Assembly (NCBI GenBank): GCA_964508365.1
Contig: CAZDTP010000034.1
Coordinates: forward strand, 1 to 42,855
Length of the DNA: 42,855 nt
Reading direction: 5' to 3'
From: an uncultured archaeon
Lineage (GTDB): Archaea; Asgardarchaeota; Lokiarchaeia; Sigyniarchaeales; SOKP01
The position numbers and the translations under genes are program-made. The notes beneath the pieces are model-generated. The model did not search any database, was not told the origin of the DNA, and was given only the letters and a program-made list of their open reading frames with translations. Positions 27,392 to 35,303 of this stretch are shown here, one piece after another; positions within the stretch are counted from its first letter, which is position 1, and every line of letters starts with the position of its first letter.

Positions 27392-30300
27392 GTGAATAAT
27401 TTGCTTATTGAACTTATTCTTTTTATAATTTTTTTATTTTTATCCGTAGTAGGATTCTTCATAATCTATAAACAAGTAGCCTTAGTTAAAAAAGGAGAAT
27501 TTAACCTTAGAGATCGCCTTCAGTGTTTAATATATGGGGTTATCTTTGGTGCGGGGGTGATGATTGTCATTGCGATGGCATTCATTTTTGCCGTAAAGAC
27601 TCCCGAATTTTGGCAAAATAGTAACTTAACTCCCCCCAATATCAGCCCTCTTGCATTACTAATTCCTTTTGCTTTTTGCATTGGATATATATCGTTCTAT
27701 CCATTGATTGATTTCCTTTTCATTGCTTTAAGTTCCGAATTAGACGAAGGACTCACTCCATTTCACAAATTTATAAGTAATAAAATTATCAATTTTTCTA
27801 ATAGTAAGATAATCTCTGTGTTAATGGCAGTTTTCTTATATAGTTTATTTATCATACCACCTCTGTTGTTGACTTTTACAGGTTTACCATTTTTAATGAT
27901 ATGGATTTCCTGGTTACTTGTTTACCCTTTAATGATTCTTACTTTTTATGGATCTAAGGGTTACATCGCAGGGATTTCTAACGAATACTATCACATCCCT
28001 GAAATCAAAAGGTCTATATTTTTAAATTTCGAAGATAGAAAAAGAGGTCTGAAACAATTTATTTCAAATCCCAAACCATATATCATGTTAGGTTTGATGT
28101 TATTCGTGTTTATATGGGCATGGATTTCATTATTTCAGACGATTATTTTCTTTTTTTCAGGATCACTTGCAATTTCTACGATGATGACATCTTATTTTGT
28201 TTTTGTTACTCTTTTATTTGGCATTATCGGCTATTTTACGCGATTTTGGGGTCGTAAGATTAAATATCGCGGCATTGATATTTATTTCGCAGCTTATTTA
28301 ATGGCAACTATTGGAATTAATGTGCTAGTAAATTTTTTAATAGTTAACATAGATAAATTAACGGAAACTTTTAACTATTTGATTATTTCAGCTGAACTTA
28401 TTCCTAATTCATATATGTTTGCTTGGGCAGCTGTAATAGAAGAAATTTTTATGCTTACATTTACAACCTATTATTTCTTGTCAAAAAAGAATAGTTTTAC
28501 TAAAAATCTTAAATATTCTAAGATTATTGAGTACGGTCAAACATTTGATGCTATACCTTTGTTTAATTTCATAAAAAGTTCTGATCCCTTAATTAGGGAT
28601 CACGCAGAGAAGACCCTTTTAATGATGTACGAACGAATTCCTTTAAAATCAGAGATTTCTCTAGACGATTGGGAATATAAAGATTCTTTATTGGATGGAA
28701 TTAGTGATTCAAATCCGAATTCAAGAAGAATTTCTATTCAAATATTAAAAAAATTGGAGAAAGATACCTCTGAAGTAATTATACCATGGATACTAGAAGC
28801 TCTCGAATCACCGAATTACGATAAAAGCATACCTATTGCTGAATCAATACTTCGTGCTGAAGCCTCTTTAATAAAAAAAATACCTATAAAAATCATTAGA
28901 AACCTAATATCAGATTCTGAGTGGAGAATGAAACTGATCGGGTTAAAATTATTAACCAAATTAATCGAAATTGAAAAAGATTCAGTTCAAAATATAAATT
29001 TAATGAAATTTTTAAACGATCCAAGCAGTTTCGTTCAAATTGAAATTCTAAATCTGCTATCAAAGACAAAGTTGAATGTGAAACCTGAAATATTACTAAA
29101 TAAAATTCATCACCCTAATCAAAACATTAGAGCAGCTGCAATTCGAAACTTGAAAAATCTCAATCTTGAAAAACTTGATTCCAATATTGTTAAAACATTA
29201 ATTCCCTTGATGTGCGATACTAACAGTAAAATCCGAGCCTCTATATTTGCCGTAATTTCTAAAATAGGGAACTTTAAGAAATATTCTATTCCTGTCTCGT
29301 CTTTCTATGACGGATTATTAGATACAGATGGAGAAGTAAGGAAGGCATCAGTCTTAGCTCTGGAAAAATATTATGCTGAAGAACCCAAGTCCATCGATCT
29401 AGAAAAAATTATCAGTCAAATTGATACTGAAAATTTAGATTCATTAAATAGTATTTTATCTCTATTAGGGAAAATTTGGCAAAGTAATCCTGAAAAGATT
29501 TTAACAACTTTATTAATATTTATAAAATTCAACAATTCCGAGTTAAAAAAAGAAATTTCAGATATTATTGTTAAAAACTTTAAGAAAAACCCAATTCTAA
29601 TTTTAGATAAATTAATTCGAATTAAAGATGAAACAAAATTTATATCAAAAGGTATTATTACTCAAACGATTATAAAGATATGCAGACAAAACCCTAATGA
29701 AGTAATCCCAAAACTAATTGATCAGTTGAATTCGGAAGATCTTGATATAAAAATTAATATTATCTCTTCGCTGGATGGATTAATAGACGATTTTATTGAT
29801 TTAATAGCCCTTAATTCAATAATAAGAATTATTAAAGGTGAAAATGAGATTGTTCTCAAGAAAGAAGCCGCTCACTTAATTTCTAAAATTTCAAAAACCA
29901 AACCCCTAGCATTAAAATCTGTATTATCAGAATTATTACAATTTCTCCCTAAACAAGAATTGTCTGTTAGAATTGTTTTAACTAAATCTATATTGGAAAT
30001 TTCAAAAAATTTACCGGATATGATACCTGTTCCTCTCGTTTTAGAATATTTATCTGATTCCGATTCATTTATTAGAGAAACAAGTGTGAAAATTTTAGGC
30101 TATATTGGAAAAACTCTGCCGATCCCTACTATTAATGCTCTAATTAACCAAGCTTTAATTGACGAAGAATGGATCGTGCGTGACGCTACAGTTACAAGTT
30201 TAGGAAAACTAATCCTATTTATTGAAGACAAGGAAGTAATTATTAAGAATTTAGTAAATTTAATGGATGACGACAACAGTTGGGTCCGGCGATCATCAAT

Positions 30301-30751
30301 GAAAATTCTTTCTTCAATTAAAGAAATTTCCGAATCCAAAATTCCCTTTATAAAAGTTTCGGAAAACTTACTGAACGAAGACCCAAAGGTTAGAGAAGGA
30401 GCAGCTAATTTATTAAATATTTACAGCTTTGAGGATATTGAAAAAGTTTTTCAGAATATTATATCATTATTAGGAGACGAAGTAGAAGATGTTAGAGCAA
30501 CCACCGTAGATGTAATGGTGAAAATCATCCAAAAAAGGGGTATAACTAAAATACTCTCGAAATTATTAAAAAATTTAAGCGATGAATCCACTTTAGAAAC
30601 ACAACAATCAATAGCAATTATATTGGGGCGAACAGTTAGATATGCAGATGAAAAAATAAAAAAAAGGGTAATCTCTCTACTTAAAATTAGATGTGAAATG
30701 TCACAAGATAAAATTATTTGCAAAATCCTAAATAAATTAAGAGAAGGTTAA
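27392..30751 (+). CDS. polytopic membrane protein with long C-terminal HEAT-repeat solenoid
   Basis: About 9 hydrophobic segments in the first ~365 aa, then recurring L.D....VR..A HEAT motifs (DPLIRDHA, DSEWRMKL, DTNSKIRAS, DGEVRKAS, DSFIRETS, DEEWIVRDAT, DPKVREGA, DVRATT). Confidence 0.85.
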   Translation: MNNLLIELILFIIFLFLSVVGFFIIYKQVALVKKGEFNLRDRLQCLIYGVIFGAGVMIVIAMAFIFAVKTPEFWQNSNLTPPNISPLALLIPFAFCIGYISFYPLIDFLFIALSSELDEGLTPFHKFISNKIINFSNSKIISVLMAVFLYSLFIIPPLLLTFTGLPFLMIWISWLLVYPLMILTFYGSKGYIAGISNEYYHIPEIKRSIFLNFEDRKRGLKQFISNPKPYIMLGLMLFVFIWAWISLFQTIIFFFSGSLAISTMMTSYFVFVTLLFGIIGYFTRFWGRKIKYRGIDIYFAAYLMATIGINVLVNFLIVNIDKLTETFNYLIISAELIPNSYMFAWAAVIEEIFMLTFTTYYFLSKKNSFTKNLKYSKIIEYGQTFDAIPLFNFIKSSDPLIRDHAEKTLLMMYERIPLKSEISLDDWEYKDSLLDGISDSNPNSRRISIQILKKLEKDTSEVIIPWILEALESPNYDKSIPIAESILRAEASLIKKIPIKIIRNLISDSEWRMKLIGLKLLTKLIEIEKDSVQNINLMKFLNDPSSFVQIEILNLLSKTKLNVKPEILLNKIHHPNQNIRAAAIRNLKNLNLEKLDSNIVKTLIPLMCDTNSKIRASIFAVISKIGNFKKYSIPVSSFYDGLLDTDGEVRKASVLALEKYYAEEPKSIDLEKIISQIDTENLDSLNSILSLLGKIWQSNPEKILTTLLIFIKFNNSELKKEISDIIVKNFKKNPILILDKLIRIKDETKFISKGIITQTIIKICRQNPNEVIPKLIDQLNSEDLDIKINIISSLDGLIDDFIDLIALNSIIRIIKGENEIVLKKEAAHLISKISKTKPLALKSVLSELLQFLPKQELSVRIVLTKSILEISKNLPDMIPVPLVLEYLSDSDSFIRETSVKILGYIGKTLPIPTINALINQALIDEEWIVRDATVTSLGKLILFIEDKEVIIKNLVNLMDDDNSWVRRSSMKILSSIKEISESKIPFIKVSENLLNEDPKVREGAANLLNIYSFEDIEKVFQNIISLLGDEVEDVRATTVDVMVKIIQKRGITKILSKLLKNLSDESTLETQQSIAIILGRTVRYADEKIKKRVISLLKIRCEMSQDKIICKILNKLREG

Positions 30752-30930: not shown

Positions 30931-33057
30931 TTGACAACGCCAATGTCCAGCCCTAGTATACCTATTCATAAAATTCAGCGTTTTGAAGAATTTTTTAGAT
31001 TATATGAAGAAAAACCAGGAGTATATAAATATCTAGACTTGATTAATGATGTTATTTCAAAAAGTGGCAACACGCTAACTATTTTCTACGAAGATTTATT
31101 AGCATTTGATCCACAAATTGCTGAGCTTTTAAGAAAAGAGCCAAGTTCCGTTTTAGAAGATATTACTGATGCTTTCATGAATATAATGAAATTTCAAGGC
31201 GGTAATATAATTGATCAAGATTACTTTGTAAGGATAACAACCAAAGACGAACTGAGTCCCCTATTTATAACTTTAAGAGGTTTAAGAGCAAAAAACATAG
31301 ATCGTCTTGTGTGGACTAATGGAATTTTAGTGAGGAGTTCAACGATAAGACCAAAATTAATTAAAGCAGAGTTCGAATGTATGACATGTGGTGCCAAATT
31401 TGAAGTTTTACAACTTACATCTAGAATAAAATGGCCAAAATTTTGTACTAATACACGATGCAAAGCAAAATCTCAATCAGATTTCAGGCTTATTTCTAGA
31501 AATTCTGAATTTATAGATTGGCAAAGCGTCACGGTTCAAGAAATACCGGAAGATCTTCCTCCTGGTAGAATACCTAGAGCGATTCAAGCAATATTAACTT
31601 ACGATTTAGTAGATACTGTAAAACCTGGTGATAGGGTCACTTTAATGGGGACATTTAAATCAGTACTAGCGCAATCTACAAAAAGTATGAATAGTACACT
31701 CTTCAAAACTTTTATCGATGTCAATTACATCGATCCAGAAGACAAAACAGAAGGATTTATCGAATTATCTAAAGAAGATAAAGAGGAAATTGAAAGATTA
31801 TCAAAAGAACCCATGATACAAAAGAAAATAGCAAGGTCTATATCCCCAGTTATCTATGGAAGAGACGAGCTGAAATTGGCCACAGCATTAAGTTTATTTG
31901 GGGGTACTAGAAAAATACGACCTGGGGGAGGATATAAACGAGGGGATATACATGTTTTATTTGTGGGGGATCCAGGGACTGGTAAATCAGAGATTCTAAA
32001 AAGTGCAATCGAAGTATCACCTCGCGGTTTGTATACATCAGGGAAAGGTTCAACGGCAGTTGGTCTAACAGCTGCGGTTATTAAAGACAATGAAACCGGT
32101 CAAATGAACCTTGAGGCAGGGGCCATTATACTAGCTAATGGAGGGGTCGCTGCTATAGATGAATTCGATAAAATGGACACATCTGATAGATCTGCTCTAC
32201 ATGAAGCAATGGAGCAACAAACTGTTAGTATAGCTAAAGCAGGAATTGTTGCTACGTTAAAAGCCCAAACAGCAATTATAGCGGCAGCAAATCCTCGCAC
32301 TGGAAGATATGATCGCTATAAAACACCGACGCAAAATATTAATCTTCCACCTTCACTCTTATCTCGTTTCGATTTAATTTTTATCGTTACGGACAAACCA
32401 GATCCCGCTAATGATGCACAAATGGCAGAGTTTATATTACAAAATTCAATGCAGGGACCAAAGGATAAAACAAACAGTAAATCTAGTAATGTAGCTCCTA
32501 TTGACAATGAACTTCTAAAAAAATACATTAAACATGCAAGAAGGAAATATTTTCCTGTATTGAGTGAAGAAGCAAAGGAAACAATTAAAGAATTCTATTT
32601 ACAACTACGAGGTCAATACGATAGTGAAGATGCGATTGTTTCGATTTTAGCAAGAAATCTAGATGCTCTCGTGCGATTGAGTGAAGCTTATGCAAAAATG
32701 GCATTAAGAAATAAGGTAATCAAAAGCGATGTTGAAGAAATTATCAAATTATTTAAGAGGTATTTAAAAGACACAGGTTACGATGAAAGCACGGGAAAGA
32801 TTGATATGGATAGGCTTTTAGTTGGCCAATCTCGGAGCTCTATCAGTAAACTTGATAAAATGCTTACCAGATTAAAAGAAATATTTGAAGATAACAATTG
32901 GAAAGCCTTAGAAAAAAATAATGTTATTCAAATTCTTGAGCTTGAAGAAGATTTAGATGAAAAATGGATTAAAGATGCTTTGGAAGAACTTGTTAAAGAG
33001 GGTACTCTTTATGAACCAAGGAATAATATGATAAAATTTACTTATAAAGAGGATTAA
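30931..33057 (+). CDS. mcm: MCM replicative helicase
   Basis: Zn finger CMTC...CTNTRC, GDPGTGKS, IDEFDKM, AAANP, SRFD, C-terminal winged helix; no intein; GGTGAT RBS then TTG. Confidence 0.97.
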   Translation: MTTPMSSPSIPIHKIQRFEEFFRLYEEKPGVYKYLDLINDVISKSGNTLTIFYEDLLAFDPQIAELLRKEPSSVLEDITDAFMNIMKFQGGNIIDQDYFVRITTKDELSPLFITLRGLRAKNIDRLVWTNGILVRSSTIRPKLIKAEFECMTCGAKFEVLQLTSRIKWPKFCTNTRCKAKSQSDFRLISRNSEFIDWQSVTVQEIPEDLPPGRIPRAIQAILTYDLVDTVKPGDRVTLMGTFKSVLAQSTKSMNSTLFKTFIDVNYIDPEDKTEGFIELSKEDKEEIERLSKEPMIQKKIARSISPVIYGRDELKLATALSLFGGTRKIRPGGGYKRGDIHVLFVGDPGTGKSEILKSAIEVSPRGLYTSGKGSTAVGLTAAVIKDNETGQMNLEAGAIILANGGVAAIDEFDKMDTSDRSALHEAMEQQTVSIAKAGIVATLKAQTAIIAAANPRTGRYDRYKTPTQNINLPPSLLSRFDLIFIVTDKPDPANDAQMAEFILQNSMQGPKDKTNSKSSNVAPIDNELLKKYIKHARRKYFPVLSEEAKETIKEFYLQLRGQYDSEDAIVSILARNLDALVRLSEAYAKMALRNKVIKSDVEEIIKLFKRYLKDTGYDESTGKIDMDRLLVGQSRSSISKLDKMLTRLKEIFEDNNWKALEKNNVIQILELEEDLDEKWIKDALEELVKEGTLYEPRNNMIKFTYKED

Positions 33058-33113: not shown

Positions 33114-35303
33114 ATGATGGAATTACCTAATAACAGGAATAAATTCAAAAAAGTGGAAGAATTTGTCTTTGAATTTTATGATGAGGCCTATACTGAATCC
33201 TTAGATGGTGTAGAAGCACCAAAAATAACCGAGGAATCCAATGAAGTTGATTTTAAAACAGATTTAAACGAAGAACAACTCAAAATCGTGAATAACATTC
33301 AAGGTCCAATGTTGGTTATTGCAGGAGCCGGTTCTGGAAAAACGAGGACTATCGTTTATTCTGTTGCTAAACTGTTAGTATCAGGAGTAAAACCTAATGA
33401 AATAATGCTTGTTACATTCACGAATAAAGCTGCTAAAGAAATGATCAAACGAATAGAAAATTTACTTGGAAAAAAACCAAAGGGTATATGGGCGGGTACT
33501 TTCCACTCAATTGCTAGCCGATTTTTGAGGATGTATGCAAAAACGCTTGGATTAAAACCCAATTATACGATTATGGACGAAACTGATGCGAAAGGATTAA
33601 TGAAGTTATCGATTGATAAAGCAGATACAAAAGATCTCGAAGAAAGATTTCCTACATCCGCAATGGTAAAATCCATTTTATCGTTTTCAATCAACTGTAA
33701 TAAGACAATTCGTGAAATAATTCAATGGAAACATGAACAGTTTGATAGCGATGCTGTCTTTGCGAAATTACGCGAAGTCATCAATATTTATAAGACTAAA
33801 AAAGCAGAAGATAGTTTAGTAGATTTCGACGATTTATTAGTTTTCTGGAATAGGTTATTAGACGAAAGATCTATTGCGAAATTAATAGCTAAGAAAATCA
33901 AATATGTTTTGGTTGATGAGTATCAGGATACAAACTATATACAAGACGAGATAATCTATAAAATTGTACAACAAAATCCAAAACATAATTTAATGGTTGT
34001 TGGTGACGATTCACAAAGTATATATGCGTTTCGAGGCGCCAATTTTCAAAATATATTGAATTTTGAGAAAAAATATAAAGAATGCAAAAGATATACTATA
34101 ACTCAAAATTATCGTAGTGTTCCTGAAATTTTAGATTTAGCTAATGAGTCAATAACACATAACTTTTCTCAATATAGGAAAGAGATGCATACAACACATA
34201 AAAATGGAATGAAACCTATTCATGTTTTAACTGAGTCTGATGAATACCAAGCAGAATATATAGTAGAAATGATAAACCAATTGAAATTTGAAGAGTTTGA
34301 TTTAGATGATATTGCTGTTTTGTACCGCGCTGGTTATCACTCATTAAGAATAGAATTGGAATTACAAAAATATAAAATTCCTTATGTTGTGCAATCAGGG
34401 GTATCCTTCTTTGAAAGAGCTCATGTCAAAGATTTACTAGCACATTTACGTATTATTCAAAATCCGCAAGATGAGATCTCTTGGTCAAGAATACTTTCTT
34501 TGTTTCAAGGCATCGGAAAAAAGACTTCCTCTAAAATTTTCGATATGATATCGGTTATAAACAACCCTTTAGAAAATTTAATTTCAAATAACCGTTTCTC
34601 TATTATGTTAGATAAATTGAAAATTTCTAAGCTTGTAAGAGAAGAAATTTGTGATTATTTAAAGAAATTTTTTCTCTCTATTAAATATAACAAACCTAAC
34701 GAAGTTATTAATAAACTAATTCTTCAATTAAGAAAATACTTAAAAATTCAATATGGTAATTGGCAAGATCGCTTAGAAGATCTAAAACAAATTAGTATTT
34801 ATTCCCAAAATTATGATTCTATTCCTATTTTTTTGGATACTATAACACTGAATAAATCTACCTTTGAATCAAAGAAAGTGGGTTTATCATCTTTAGACAA
34901 CCAATCATCATTAACACTTTCCACAATTCATAAAGCAAAAGGATTGGAATGGAAAGTTGTGTTCATTCCGATGTTATCCGATAATCTATTTCCATCGAGC
35001 AAGGTTAAGATTAATTCCCCTGCATATGAGGAAGAACGGAGAATATTTTATGTAGGAATTACCAGAGCGAAAGACAGATTATTTTTAATATCTCCTAAAA
35101 ATATTAAAGTTTTCAAAGGTCAAAGAGAGTTAAACACCTCACAATTCATAAGAGAATTAAATCCAAAAGTATACAAAAAAAAGATATTTAGCTCTATTAA
35201 TCTAAATCAATTAAATCAAGAACAAAATTTAAATAAAAGAAAACCAGAAAGAAAAAAAGACTTTCCTTTATTTACAACAGCAGATTCCTTATTAAAAGAA
35301 TAA
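33114..35303 (+). CDS. UvrD/PcrA/Rep superfamily 1A helicase with C-terminal FTTA motif
   Basis: AGAGSGKT, TFTNKAA, DEYQD, VGDDSQSIYAFRGA, NYRS, STIHKAKGLEW, EERRIFYVGITRAK. Confidence 0.95.
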   Translation: MMELPNNRNKFKKVEEFVFEFYDEAYTESLDGVEAPKITEESNEVDFKTDLNEEQLKIVNNIQGPMLVIAGAGSGKTRTIVYSVAKLLVSGVKPNEIMLVTFTNKAAKEMIKRIENLLGKKPKGIWAGTFHSIASRFLRMYAKTLGLKPNYTIMDETDAKGLMKLSIDKADTKDLEERFPTSAMVKSILSFSINCNKTIREIIQWKHEQFDSDAVFAKLREVINIYKTKKAEDSLVDFDDLLVFWNRLLDERSIAKLIAKKIKYVLVDEYQDTNYIQDEIIYKIVQQNPKHNLMVVGDDSQSIYAFRGANFQNILNFEKKYKECKRYTITQNYRSVPEILDLANESITHNFSQYRKEMHTTHKNGMKPIHVLTESDEYQAEYIVEMINQLKFEEFDLDDIAVLYRAGYHSLRIELELQKYKIPYVVQSGVSFFERAHVKDLLAHLRIIQNPQDEISWSRILSLFQGIGKKTSSKIFDMISVINNPLENLISNNRFSIMLDKLKISKLVREEICDYLKKFFLSIKYNKPNEVINKLILQLRKYLKIQYGNWQDRLEDLKQISIYSQNYDSIPIFLDTITLNKSTFESKKVGLSSLDNQSSLTLSTIHKAKGLEWKVVFIPMLSDNLFPSSKVKINSPAYEEERRIFYVGITRAKDRLFLISPKNIKVFKGQRELNTSQFIRELNPKVYKKKIFSSINLNQLNQEQNLNKRKPERKKDFPLFTTADSLLKE

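Follow-up and report, generated by a model that had tools for sequence, protein, structure and literature searches.

The stretch of DNA analyzed here (the window) comprises 42,855 nucleotides of contig CAZDTP010000034.1 from an uncultured Asgard archaeon (assembly GCA_964508365.1) and is AT-rich, with ~30% GC. Names assigned to homologues put the organism among Loki-type Asgard archaea (Lokiarchaeota/Promethearchaeota). The forward strand of the window carries a gene for a helicase of the UvrD/PcrA type, a member of superfamily 1A (SF1A), which ends in a short peptide that resembles the polymerization motif of the recombinase RadA of the same genome. The protein is probably an archaeal regulator of recombination filaments, most likely one that strips them, and its binding to RadA is predicted. 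The gene and the parts of it on which this reading rests are given below in window coordinates.

33114..35303, plus strand: gene for the UvrD/PcrA-type SF1A helicase, 729 aa, protein P0001 (list of open reading frames, ORFs; translation; Pfam and PDB matches)
33246..35198, plus strand: folded helicase core, approximately residues 45–695 (AlphaFold2, PcrA alignment)
35199..35267, plus strand: disordered linker rich in Lys and Arg, residues 696–718 (predicted local distance difference test score, pLDDT, <50; variable among orthologues)
35268..35294, plus strand: putative RadA-mimic peptide, L719-F720-T-T-A723-D-S-L-L727 (conservation, co-fold contacts)
35271-35282, plus strand: F-x-[TS]-A core, within the putative RadA-mimic peptide

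The 729-residue ORF matches the Pfam families UvrD-helicase (PF00580; E 5e-75, 253 bits against a cut-off of 23) and UvrD_C (PF13361; E 6.7e-59, 200 bits against a cut-off of 25.6). Its best NCBIfam match is PcrA (TIGR01073), with 446 bits where the equivalog cut-off is 911, and the scores obtained with UvrD (TIGR01075; 368 bits, cut-off 1144) and Rep (TIGR01074; 367 bits, cut-off 951) are also below their cut-offs. The protein is a member of the UvrD/Rep/PcrA family and is not an equivalog of PcrA, UvrD or Rep. The closest relatives in the PDB are PcrA (1pjr, 1.5e-87) and UvrD, with matches that span residues 46–685 of the query; the alignment to PcrA covers PcrA residues 10–641 and ends at helicase residue 682. 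The helicase motifs are all intact, namely AGAGSGKT (Walker A), DEYQD, GDDSQSIYAFRGA, QNYRS, TIHKAKGLEW and VGITRAK. GDDSQSIY is likewise visible in the sequence, and every helicase motif (Walker A, DExQD and motifs III–VI) is invariant in an alignment of 46 sequences (A3).

The AlphaFold2 model of the helicase has a mean pLDDT of 82.6, with a core that is confident from approximately residue 45 to residue 695. The folded, Tudor-like C-terminal domain of PcrA and UvrD is not present after this core, either in the model or in the PcrA alignment. No other helicase of the PcrA/UvrD type was found in the genome. A second gene of the UvrD family (L087, contig C110, 1168-1842) has an N-terminal extension of ~110 aa and is a helicase-IV/HelD-like fragment that runs off the contig end.

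The C-terminus of the helicase, translated from 33114-35303, reads ...KRKPERKKDFPLFTTADSLLKE*. Its last codons, at 35262-35303 (ttt cct tta ttt aca aca gca gat tcc tta tta aaa gaa taa), encode F717-P-L-F720-T-T-A723-D-S-L-L-K-E729-stop, with the chain ending six residues past A723. The initial annotation of this locus, which described a UvrD-like helicase ending in FTTA after a basic linker, thus agrees exactly with the sequence. Residues 696–720 have pLDDT values <50, and a short helix is modeled at residues 723–728. The linker occupies the place of the Tudor-like C-terminal domain of bacterial UvrD/PcrA.

A single copy of F-x-[TS]-A, taken alone, is unremarkable. The pattern is found within the last 40 residues of 30 of the 3141 ORFs of the genome (~1%; the expectation from composition is 1.1%), and one copy proves little because ~1% of ORFs carry it near the C-terminus. 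It is conservation, not the single occurrence, that makes the motif significant, because F-x-[TS]-A is kept near the end in 117 of 120 close homologues (57–93% identity) while the linkers change freely in sequence and length. The three exceptions are a truncated protein, a protein with a different ending, and a form of 791 aa with a Cys-rich C-terminus. In this last homologue (P0075), the FxxA ending is replaced by a longer C-terminus that contains a zinc-ribbon-like CxxC...CxxC motif. In an alignment of 37 tails, F720 and A723 are the sole invariant columns after the helicase core, amid a linker of varying sequence and length. Position 722 is Thr or Ser in 117 of the 120 homologues, some orthologues read exactly FKTA, and the tail as a whole follows the consensus [LFNG]-F-x-[TS]-A-x-[DEKST]-[LIM]-[LIVFY].

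These data bear on two further points of the initial annotation. It had counted a motif lost from orthologues amid a varying tail as evidence against its proposal, and the pattern found is the reverse, with the motif kept in 117 of 120 proteins and the linker varying around it. Its description of the motif as terminal, by contrast, stands only in part: F-x-[TS]-A lies near the end in the same 117 proteins, but many orthologues have 5–20 further residues after it, basic in character and not conserved.

The helicase is widespread in the archaeal family to which the source organism belongs. When 300 genomes of the phylum were searched, it turned up in 64 of the 68 other genomes of this family. 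Second copies in genomes of the same family, at 45–49% identity, still end in NFITADKLL, QFLTADELL or GFQSAFDLL, and the motif is retained within the family down to ~45% core identity. The FxxA tail is missing in a different clade of Asgard helicases (~40% identity), whose chains stop with an acidic stretch shortly after the core; in the same search, this tail-less clade occurs in four of six genomes of a sister family and in three of 76 genomes of another. Within the source genome, only four of 5932 stop-terminated ORFs match the tail motif. The other three are frames of 85–92 aa, and no other real protein among these ORFs ends in the motif. A search for a wider RadA-binding proteome that shares the motif accordingly yielded nothing beyond the helicase.

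The genome contains three strong Rad51-family genes. In the canonical host RadA (332 aa, contig C9), the linker motif is M-G-F84-K-S-A87-D-I-I-W, and the sequence G-F-[KEQ]-[ST]-A-D-[IVL]-I-W is found at this position in 118 Asgard RadAs. It is established for RadA and RAD51 that this motif is bound by the ATPase core of the adjacent protomer (PMC4856416, PMC12280074). The helicase tail and the host RadA motif have in common the Phe, the Ser or Thr, the Ala, the Asp and a hydrophobic pair two residues on. The second RadA (427 aa; L001, contig C114, 1498-2781, minus strand) is 64% identical and has the motif GFKSAEVVW; it also carries an N-terminal extension that is Cys-rich (CEEC...H..H) and strongly acidic. 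Two RadA clades have been reported in some Asgard archaea (PMC12722695). The third gene (430 aa; L003, contig C51, 1231-2523) encodes a paralogue with the motif EFVAAEDI and an extra helix-hairpin-helix-like part at its C-terminus.

Relatives beyond the Asgard family were sought by an exhaustive search of 50%-identity representatives. In this set, the motif vanishes below ~45% identity, save for two proteins, with the endings GFVRADEL* and LFKRADEL*. The helicase with the LFKRADEL* ending lies on an archaeal contig with genes for archease, L7Ae, S28e, L24e and NreA, in a genome of 1.2 Mb whose RadA reads GFETADVIF. Among 201 genomes of the same phylum, which is DPANN-like with small genomes (0.7–1.5 Mb), 13 have a UvrD-like helicase, and four of these 13 helicases end in LFKRADEL* or DFVSAD[TQ]LL*. 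In the three genomes with DFVSAD endings, the helicase tails nearly duplicate the motif of the RadAs, M-G-F-E-S-A-D-[VK]-I-L. The DPANN-like helicase P0326 has no close relatives. Its nearest (≤47% identity) are bacterial and without the tail, with the exception of P0441 (FFTSADKL*); of the 118 proteins nearest to P0326, most of them named as bacterial, P0441 alone has such a tail.

In an exploratory tree computed with FastTree, both P0441 and the GFVRADEL protein fall inside the DPANN-like clade. FxxA tails are present in 17 of 18 rows of the Asgard family and in six of 12 DPANN-like rows of this tree, and in none of the 30 bacterial or unnamed rows and none of the rows of the second Asgard clade. 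An unresolved fork joins the Asgard f1, DPANN-like, Asgard f2/f9 and bacterial clades. Distant UvrD-like helicases (P0246-P0392) end otherwise, in [SG]FL[RK][DN][IV]D[ED]L, in ...D[DE]PF, which is reminiscent of the tail of bacterial SSB, or, in a few cases, in a Tudor-like FG.G.V domain. Because these distant relatives end in other recurrent short motifs, the sequences suggest that the UvrD-like helicase family swaps terminal adaptors.

The distribution of the motif also bears on whether the resemblance to RadA is a product of chance, with the C-terminus conserved but functionless or purely structural. Such an origin might be read into the ~1% of ORFs that carry a single F-x-[TS]-A near the C-terminus and into a motif too short for significant profile matches, yet it is very improbable, given that 117 of 120 homologues, across 45–93% identity, retain the motif, with invariant Phe and Ala inside an otherwise free-running linker, and that it recurs in a second archaeal phylum.

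The fit of the tail to RadA was modeled by co-folding two chains, the core of host RadA (residues 96–332, which exclude the RadA motif; alignment of 40 rows) and the C-terminal 52 residues of the helicase (alignment of 37 rows). Three co-fold runs scored 0.80, 0.79 and 0.80; the highest score among three controls was 0.00. The mark used for such scores is reached by 58 of 80 solved complexes and by two of 110 mismatched pairs, and is only rough for this pair, which was run with alignments of our own. Between runs, at least 72% of contacts agree, and the pLDDT of the partner is 44–48. Within the tail, confident contacts are confined to L719, F720, T721, T722, A723, D724, L726 and L727, which face RadA residues 139, 156-157, 164, 166-167, 169-170, 181, 184-190, 200-201, 204 and 208. 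By alignment (offset +13), RadA residues 156, 188, 189 and 208 correspond to I169, Y201, V202 and K221 of Pyrococcus furiosus RadA. These four are among the six positions at which the published FxxA epitope-binding site was mutated (PMC4856416). The residues that form the pocket contacts are identical at 15 of 20 positions in the second RadA and at eight of 20 in the third paralogue. A co-fold with the RadA of this genome had been suggested together with the initial annotation; it places L719–L727 in the FxxA pocket, with a score of 0.80 against 0.00, and shows likeness to a ligand of this pocket and a predicted docking, not binding. The tail is likely a ligand of a RadA-family pocket.

The helicase also has a conserved segment at its other end, and its upstream neighbor is mcm.

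33153..33194, plus strand: conserved acidic/aromatic N-terminal segment, residues 14–27, VEEFVFEFYDEAY (alignment A3)
30931..33057, plus strand: mcm, upstream neighbor, given for context (Pfam MCM 2.4e-93, MCM_OB, MCM_lid, MCM_N)

The N-terminal segment, [FY][VI]FEFYDEDY, is confined to the clade of the Asgard family and is missing in the DPANN-like and bacterial relatives. It sits in a disordered extension, as residues 1–39 have pLDDT values <50 in the AlphaFold2 model. In most orthologues, the segment can be read as a box that resembles the PCNA-interacting peptide (PIP) without its Gln (x-x-x-V-x-x-F-Y); one subclade, with ISFEVFDD, fits less well.

The helicase gene is separated by 56 nt from mcm, which is upstream on the same strand, and has a rubrerythrin gene downstream. 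The position directly downstream of mcm, which the initial annotation had pointed out, is correct for this locus, but the adjacency is found in only eight of 30 related loci, all of them from the nearest relatives. Other subclades have different neighbors, and linkage to mcm was rejected as a general functional clue. A HerA-like (DUF87) ATPase gene is adjacent in eight of the 30 loci and a CoiA-nuclease-like gene in five. Neighboring genes thus provide no consistent functional clue. The HerA-like DUF87 ATPase is encoded directly downstream on the same strand in one subclade (L021, L023-L025, L028, L029, L031 and L034; e.g., L024:3755-5101), and the CoiA-nuclease-like gene adjoins the tailed helicase in another (L022, L032, L033, L036 and L038). 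Genes for a Ras-family small GTPase (L033:787-1356) and for gelsolin repeats (L029:717-1067), both eukaryote-like signature proteins, adjoin the helicase in related genomes. In the window itself, positions 27392-30751, directly upstream of mcm, encode a protein of 1119 aa with many HEAT repeats (HEAT_2 2e-31, Cnd1 1e-10).

Elsewhere in the genome, bacterial-type UvrB (988 bits; C2:206-2179), UvrC (532 bits; C43:2676-4421) and MutL (484 bits; C32:41885-43534) are encoded, all with scores above the curated cut-offs. The presence of these three proteins together with a sole PcrA/UvrD-type helicase would suit an ordinary UvrD that acts in nucleotide-excision and mismatch repair, with a tail that binds PCNA, RPA, MCM or a RadA-paralogue scaffold, or that has no role in recombination. 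The other short motifs at the ends of distant relatives, which would make the tails interchangeable adaptors, are in keeping with this explanation too. We nevertheless consider it unlikely, as an invariant Phe with an Ala three residues on and a Ser or Thr before the Ala is the signature of an A-motif and not of a PIP box, the helicase tails of two distant archaeal phyla copy the linker of the RadA encoded in the same genome, and the contacts predicted by the co-fold lie on the FxxA site known from the literature. The PIP box follows the pattern Q-x-x-h-x-x-a-a. The C-terminal peptide fits it poorly, having an invariant Phe and Ala, a Ser or Thr before the Ala, no Gln and no aromatic pair, and a reading of this peptide as a PCNA ligand was set aside.

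The explanation that we favor on balance, and the most economical one, is that of a UvrD motor tethered to RadA by a decoy peptide. The protein is a bacterial-type SF1A UvrD/PcrA translocase and helicase on single-stranded DNA (ssDNA) in which the folded C-terminal domain has been replaced by a flexible basic linker of ~25 residues. The tail peptide L-F-T-T-A-D-S-L-L imitates the polymerization motif G-F-K-S-A-D-I-I-W of the host RadA, and its Phe and Ala would insert into the FxxA pocket of the RadA ATPase core, a site that is normally filled by the adjacent protomer. Docking of this kind is predicted from the co-fold, and it would both tether the motor to RadA-ssDNA filaments and compete with the contact between subunits. 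By analogy with UvrD/PcrA acting on RecA and with Srs2 acting on Rad51, the motor, translocating in the 3'-to-5' direction, would then clear RadA from ssDNA. Two reports describe the active removal of RecA from DNA by UvrD (PMC4417151) and the stripping of Rad51 from ssDNA by Srs2 (PMC10709652). The same helicase may also serve the UvrBC and MutL pathways. As a whole, and with the stripping of RadA filaments included, this explanation is somewhat more probable than its negation. The interpretation offered with the initial annotation is supported in part.

The evidence for docking, that is, the likeness to RadA, the invariant Phe and Ala and the co-fold, applies equally to a helicase that binds RadA through its tail and promotes recombination, either by unwinding invaded strands in a manner akin to synthesis-dependent strand annealing, after recruitment by RadA filaments or D-loops, or by carrying monomeric RadA to ssDNA in the way of BRC repeats and Rad52. 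The FxxA motifs of Rad52 and BRCA2 function as assembly chaperones (PMC12218292), and the BRC-variant (BRCv) motif of MCM9 recruits RAD51 (PMC7949153). The HerA-like DUF87 ATPase encoded directly downstream in one subclade points in the same direction, its homologue HerA acting in archaeal end resection. A pro-recombination role is nonetheless fairly unlikely: the tail has a single A-motif without a second BRC module, A-motifs have been described as filament-disruptive (PMC11229353), and the SF1A relatives UvrD, PcrA and Srs2 are known strippers.

Several points weigh against the decoy-tethered stripping of RadA. The core shared with RadA amounts to only 4–5 residues, and the regular expression that matches solely RadA and the helicase was composed with knowledge of both sequences. 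In an unbiased profile test, a hidden Markov model built from 68 distinct windows of helicase tails was run against 4338 ORFs of the genome; the best foreign match had E = 0.35, and the RadA linker was outside the top 15. Because the motif is too short for sequence statistics, the likeness to RadA rests on inspection, conservation and the co-fold. The co-fold in turn may owe its score to memory, because RAD51-BRC4 (1n0w) and dozens of RadA-peptide complexes have already been solved and deposited in the PDB. The true partner could be the second RadA, because 15 of its 20 pocket residues are identical. A peptide of the FxxA type might, moreover, act in the delivery or chaperoning of RadA, as in Rad52 and BRCA2 (PMC12218292), and not in its removal. 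Finally, the helicase likely does ordinary excision and mismatch repair work as well, because the genome has UvrB, UvrC and MutL together with only one helicase of the PcrA/UvrD type. Such work may even be its chief role.

The principle of an FxxA decoy is already known in eukaryotes, and an archaeal UvrD-type carrier of it has not been described before in the literature searched. The A-motifs (FxxA) of BRC repeats compete against RAD51's A-motif and disrupt filaments (PMC11229353). BRC-like A-motifs are present in RECQL5, MCM9 and FIGNL1 (PMC11229353, PMC7949153, PMC7617353), Srs2 is predicted to contain a BRC-variant motif (PMC7949153), and yeast Rad52 uses FVTA (PMC12218292). For archaea, the reviews searched name only Hel308/HelQ as a helicase that acts on recombination (PMC4999840), and our full-text literature search returned no archaeal UvrD-type helicase with a RadA-type motif, no Asgard anti-recombinase and, for archaea in general, no dedicated anti-recombinase that docks on RadA. 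If the proposed mechanism is true, the helicases described here would be the first archaeal anti-recombinases in the style of Srs2 and FIGNL1, and mimicry of the BRC type would predate eukaryotes. We put forward, tentatively and at somewhat less than even likelihood, that in at least two archaeal phyla, represented by a Loki-type Asgard family and a DPANN-like phylum, bacterial UvrD motors obtained by horizontal transfer were given a copy of the polymerization motif of the host RadA, and that control of filaments by a decoy and a motor is then not a eukaryotic invention. Should the tail bind RadA, the protein would offer a minimal and tractable FxxA-decoy system with one motor, one linker and one peptide, and would illustrate the rewiring of a bacterial repair helicase, acquired horizontally, to a recombinase of the archaeal/eukaryotic type by the swap of a terminal adaptor.

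The protein can be compared with several known systems. Srs2 of Saccharomyces cerevisiae likewise combines an SF1A UvrD-type motor with a non-catalytic C-terminal region that contacts the recombinase (PMC10709652), a contact that is predicted for the archaeal helicase. Srs2 has a long C-terminal region with PCNA and SUMO modules, whereas the archaeal tail has ~35 residues and one motif. The term "Srs2-like", which was applied to the protein at first, is apt as a functional analogy and not as a statement of descent, since the closest relatives by sequence are bacterial PcrA and UvrD. No chain of Srs2 appears among the PDB matches of the protein. These bacterial enzymes (Escherichia coli UvrD and Geobacillus stearothermophilus PcrA; PDB 2is1 and 1pjr) are the best relatives in both sequence and structure, and their usual partners UvrB, UvrC and MutL are also encoded by the archaeal genome. 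The archaeal helicase differs from them in scores far below the equivalog cut-offs, in a disordered basic linker and an FxxA peptide that replace the Tudor-like domain, and in its target recombinase, which would be RadA and not RecA.

The tail itself is close in kind to BRC-type A-motifs, as found in BRC4 of BRCA2 (F1524-HTA), the BRCv motifs of RECQL5 and MCM9 (FxTA(S/T)), FIGNL1 (FKTA) and Rad52 (FVTA), with which it shares a Phe and an Ala three residues apart, a Thr or Ser before the Ala, and a location in a disordered segment. The described motifs occupy the oligomerization pocket in the ATPase core of the recombinase, in competition with the motif of the recombinase itself (PMC11229353, PMC7949153, PMC7617353, PMC12218292); docking of the archaeal tail at this site is predicted. 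The cases described are all eukaryotic, whereas the host here is an archaeon and the carrier a member of the UvrD family. The helicase lacks the second BRC module (LFDE or BRCv motif 2), and the Ala is followed by D-x-L-L, as in the linkers of archaeal RadAs, and not by the S-G-K of the BRC-type motifs. The polymerization motifs of RadA and Rad51 (F97-MRA in P. furiosus, FKTA in Sulfolobus solfataricus, GF84-KSA in the host) have the same core as the helicase tail, and the likeness to the host RadA continues beyond it, with an Asp and a hydrophobic pair after the core in both F-K-S-A-D-I-I-W and F-T-T-A-D-S-L-L. The two differ in the position of the motif, which in RadA and Rad51 lies between the N-terminal and ATPase domains and in the helicase stands at the end of the chain.

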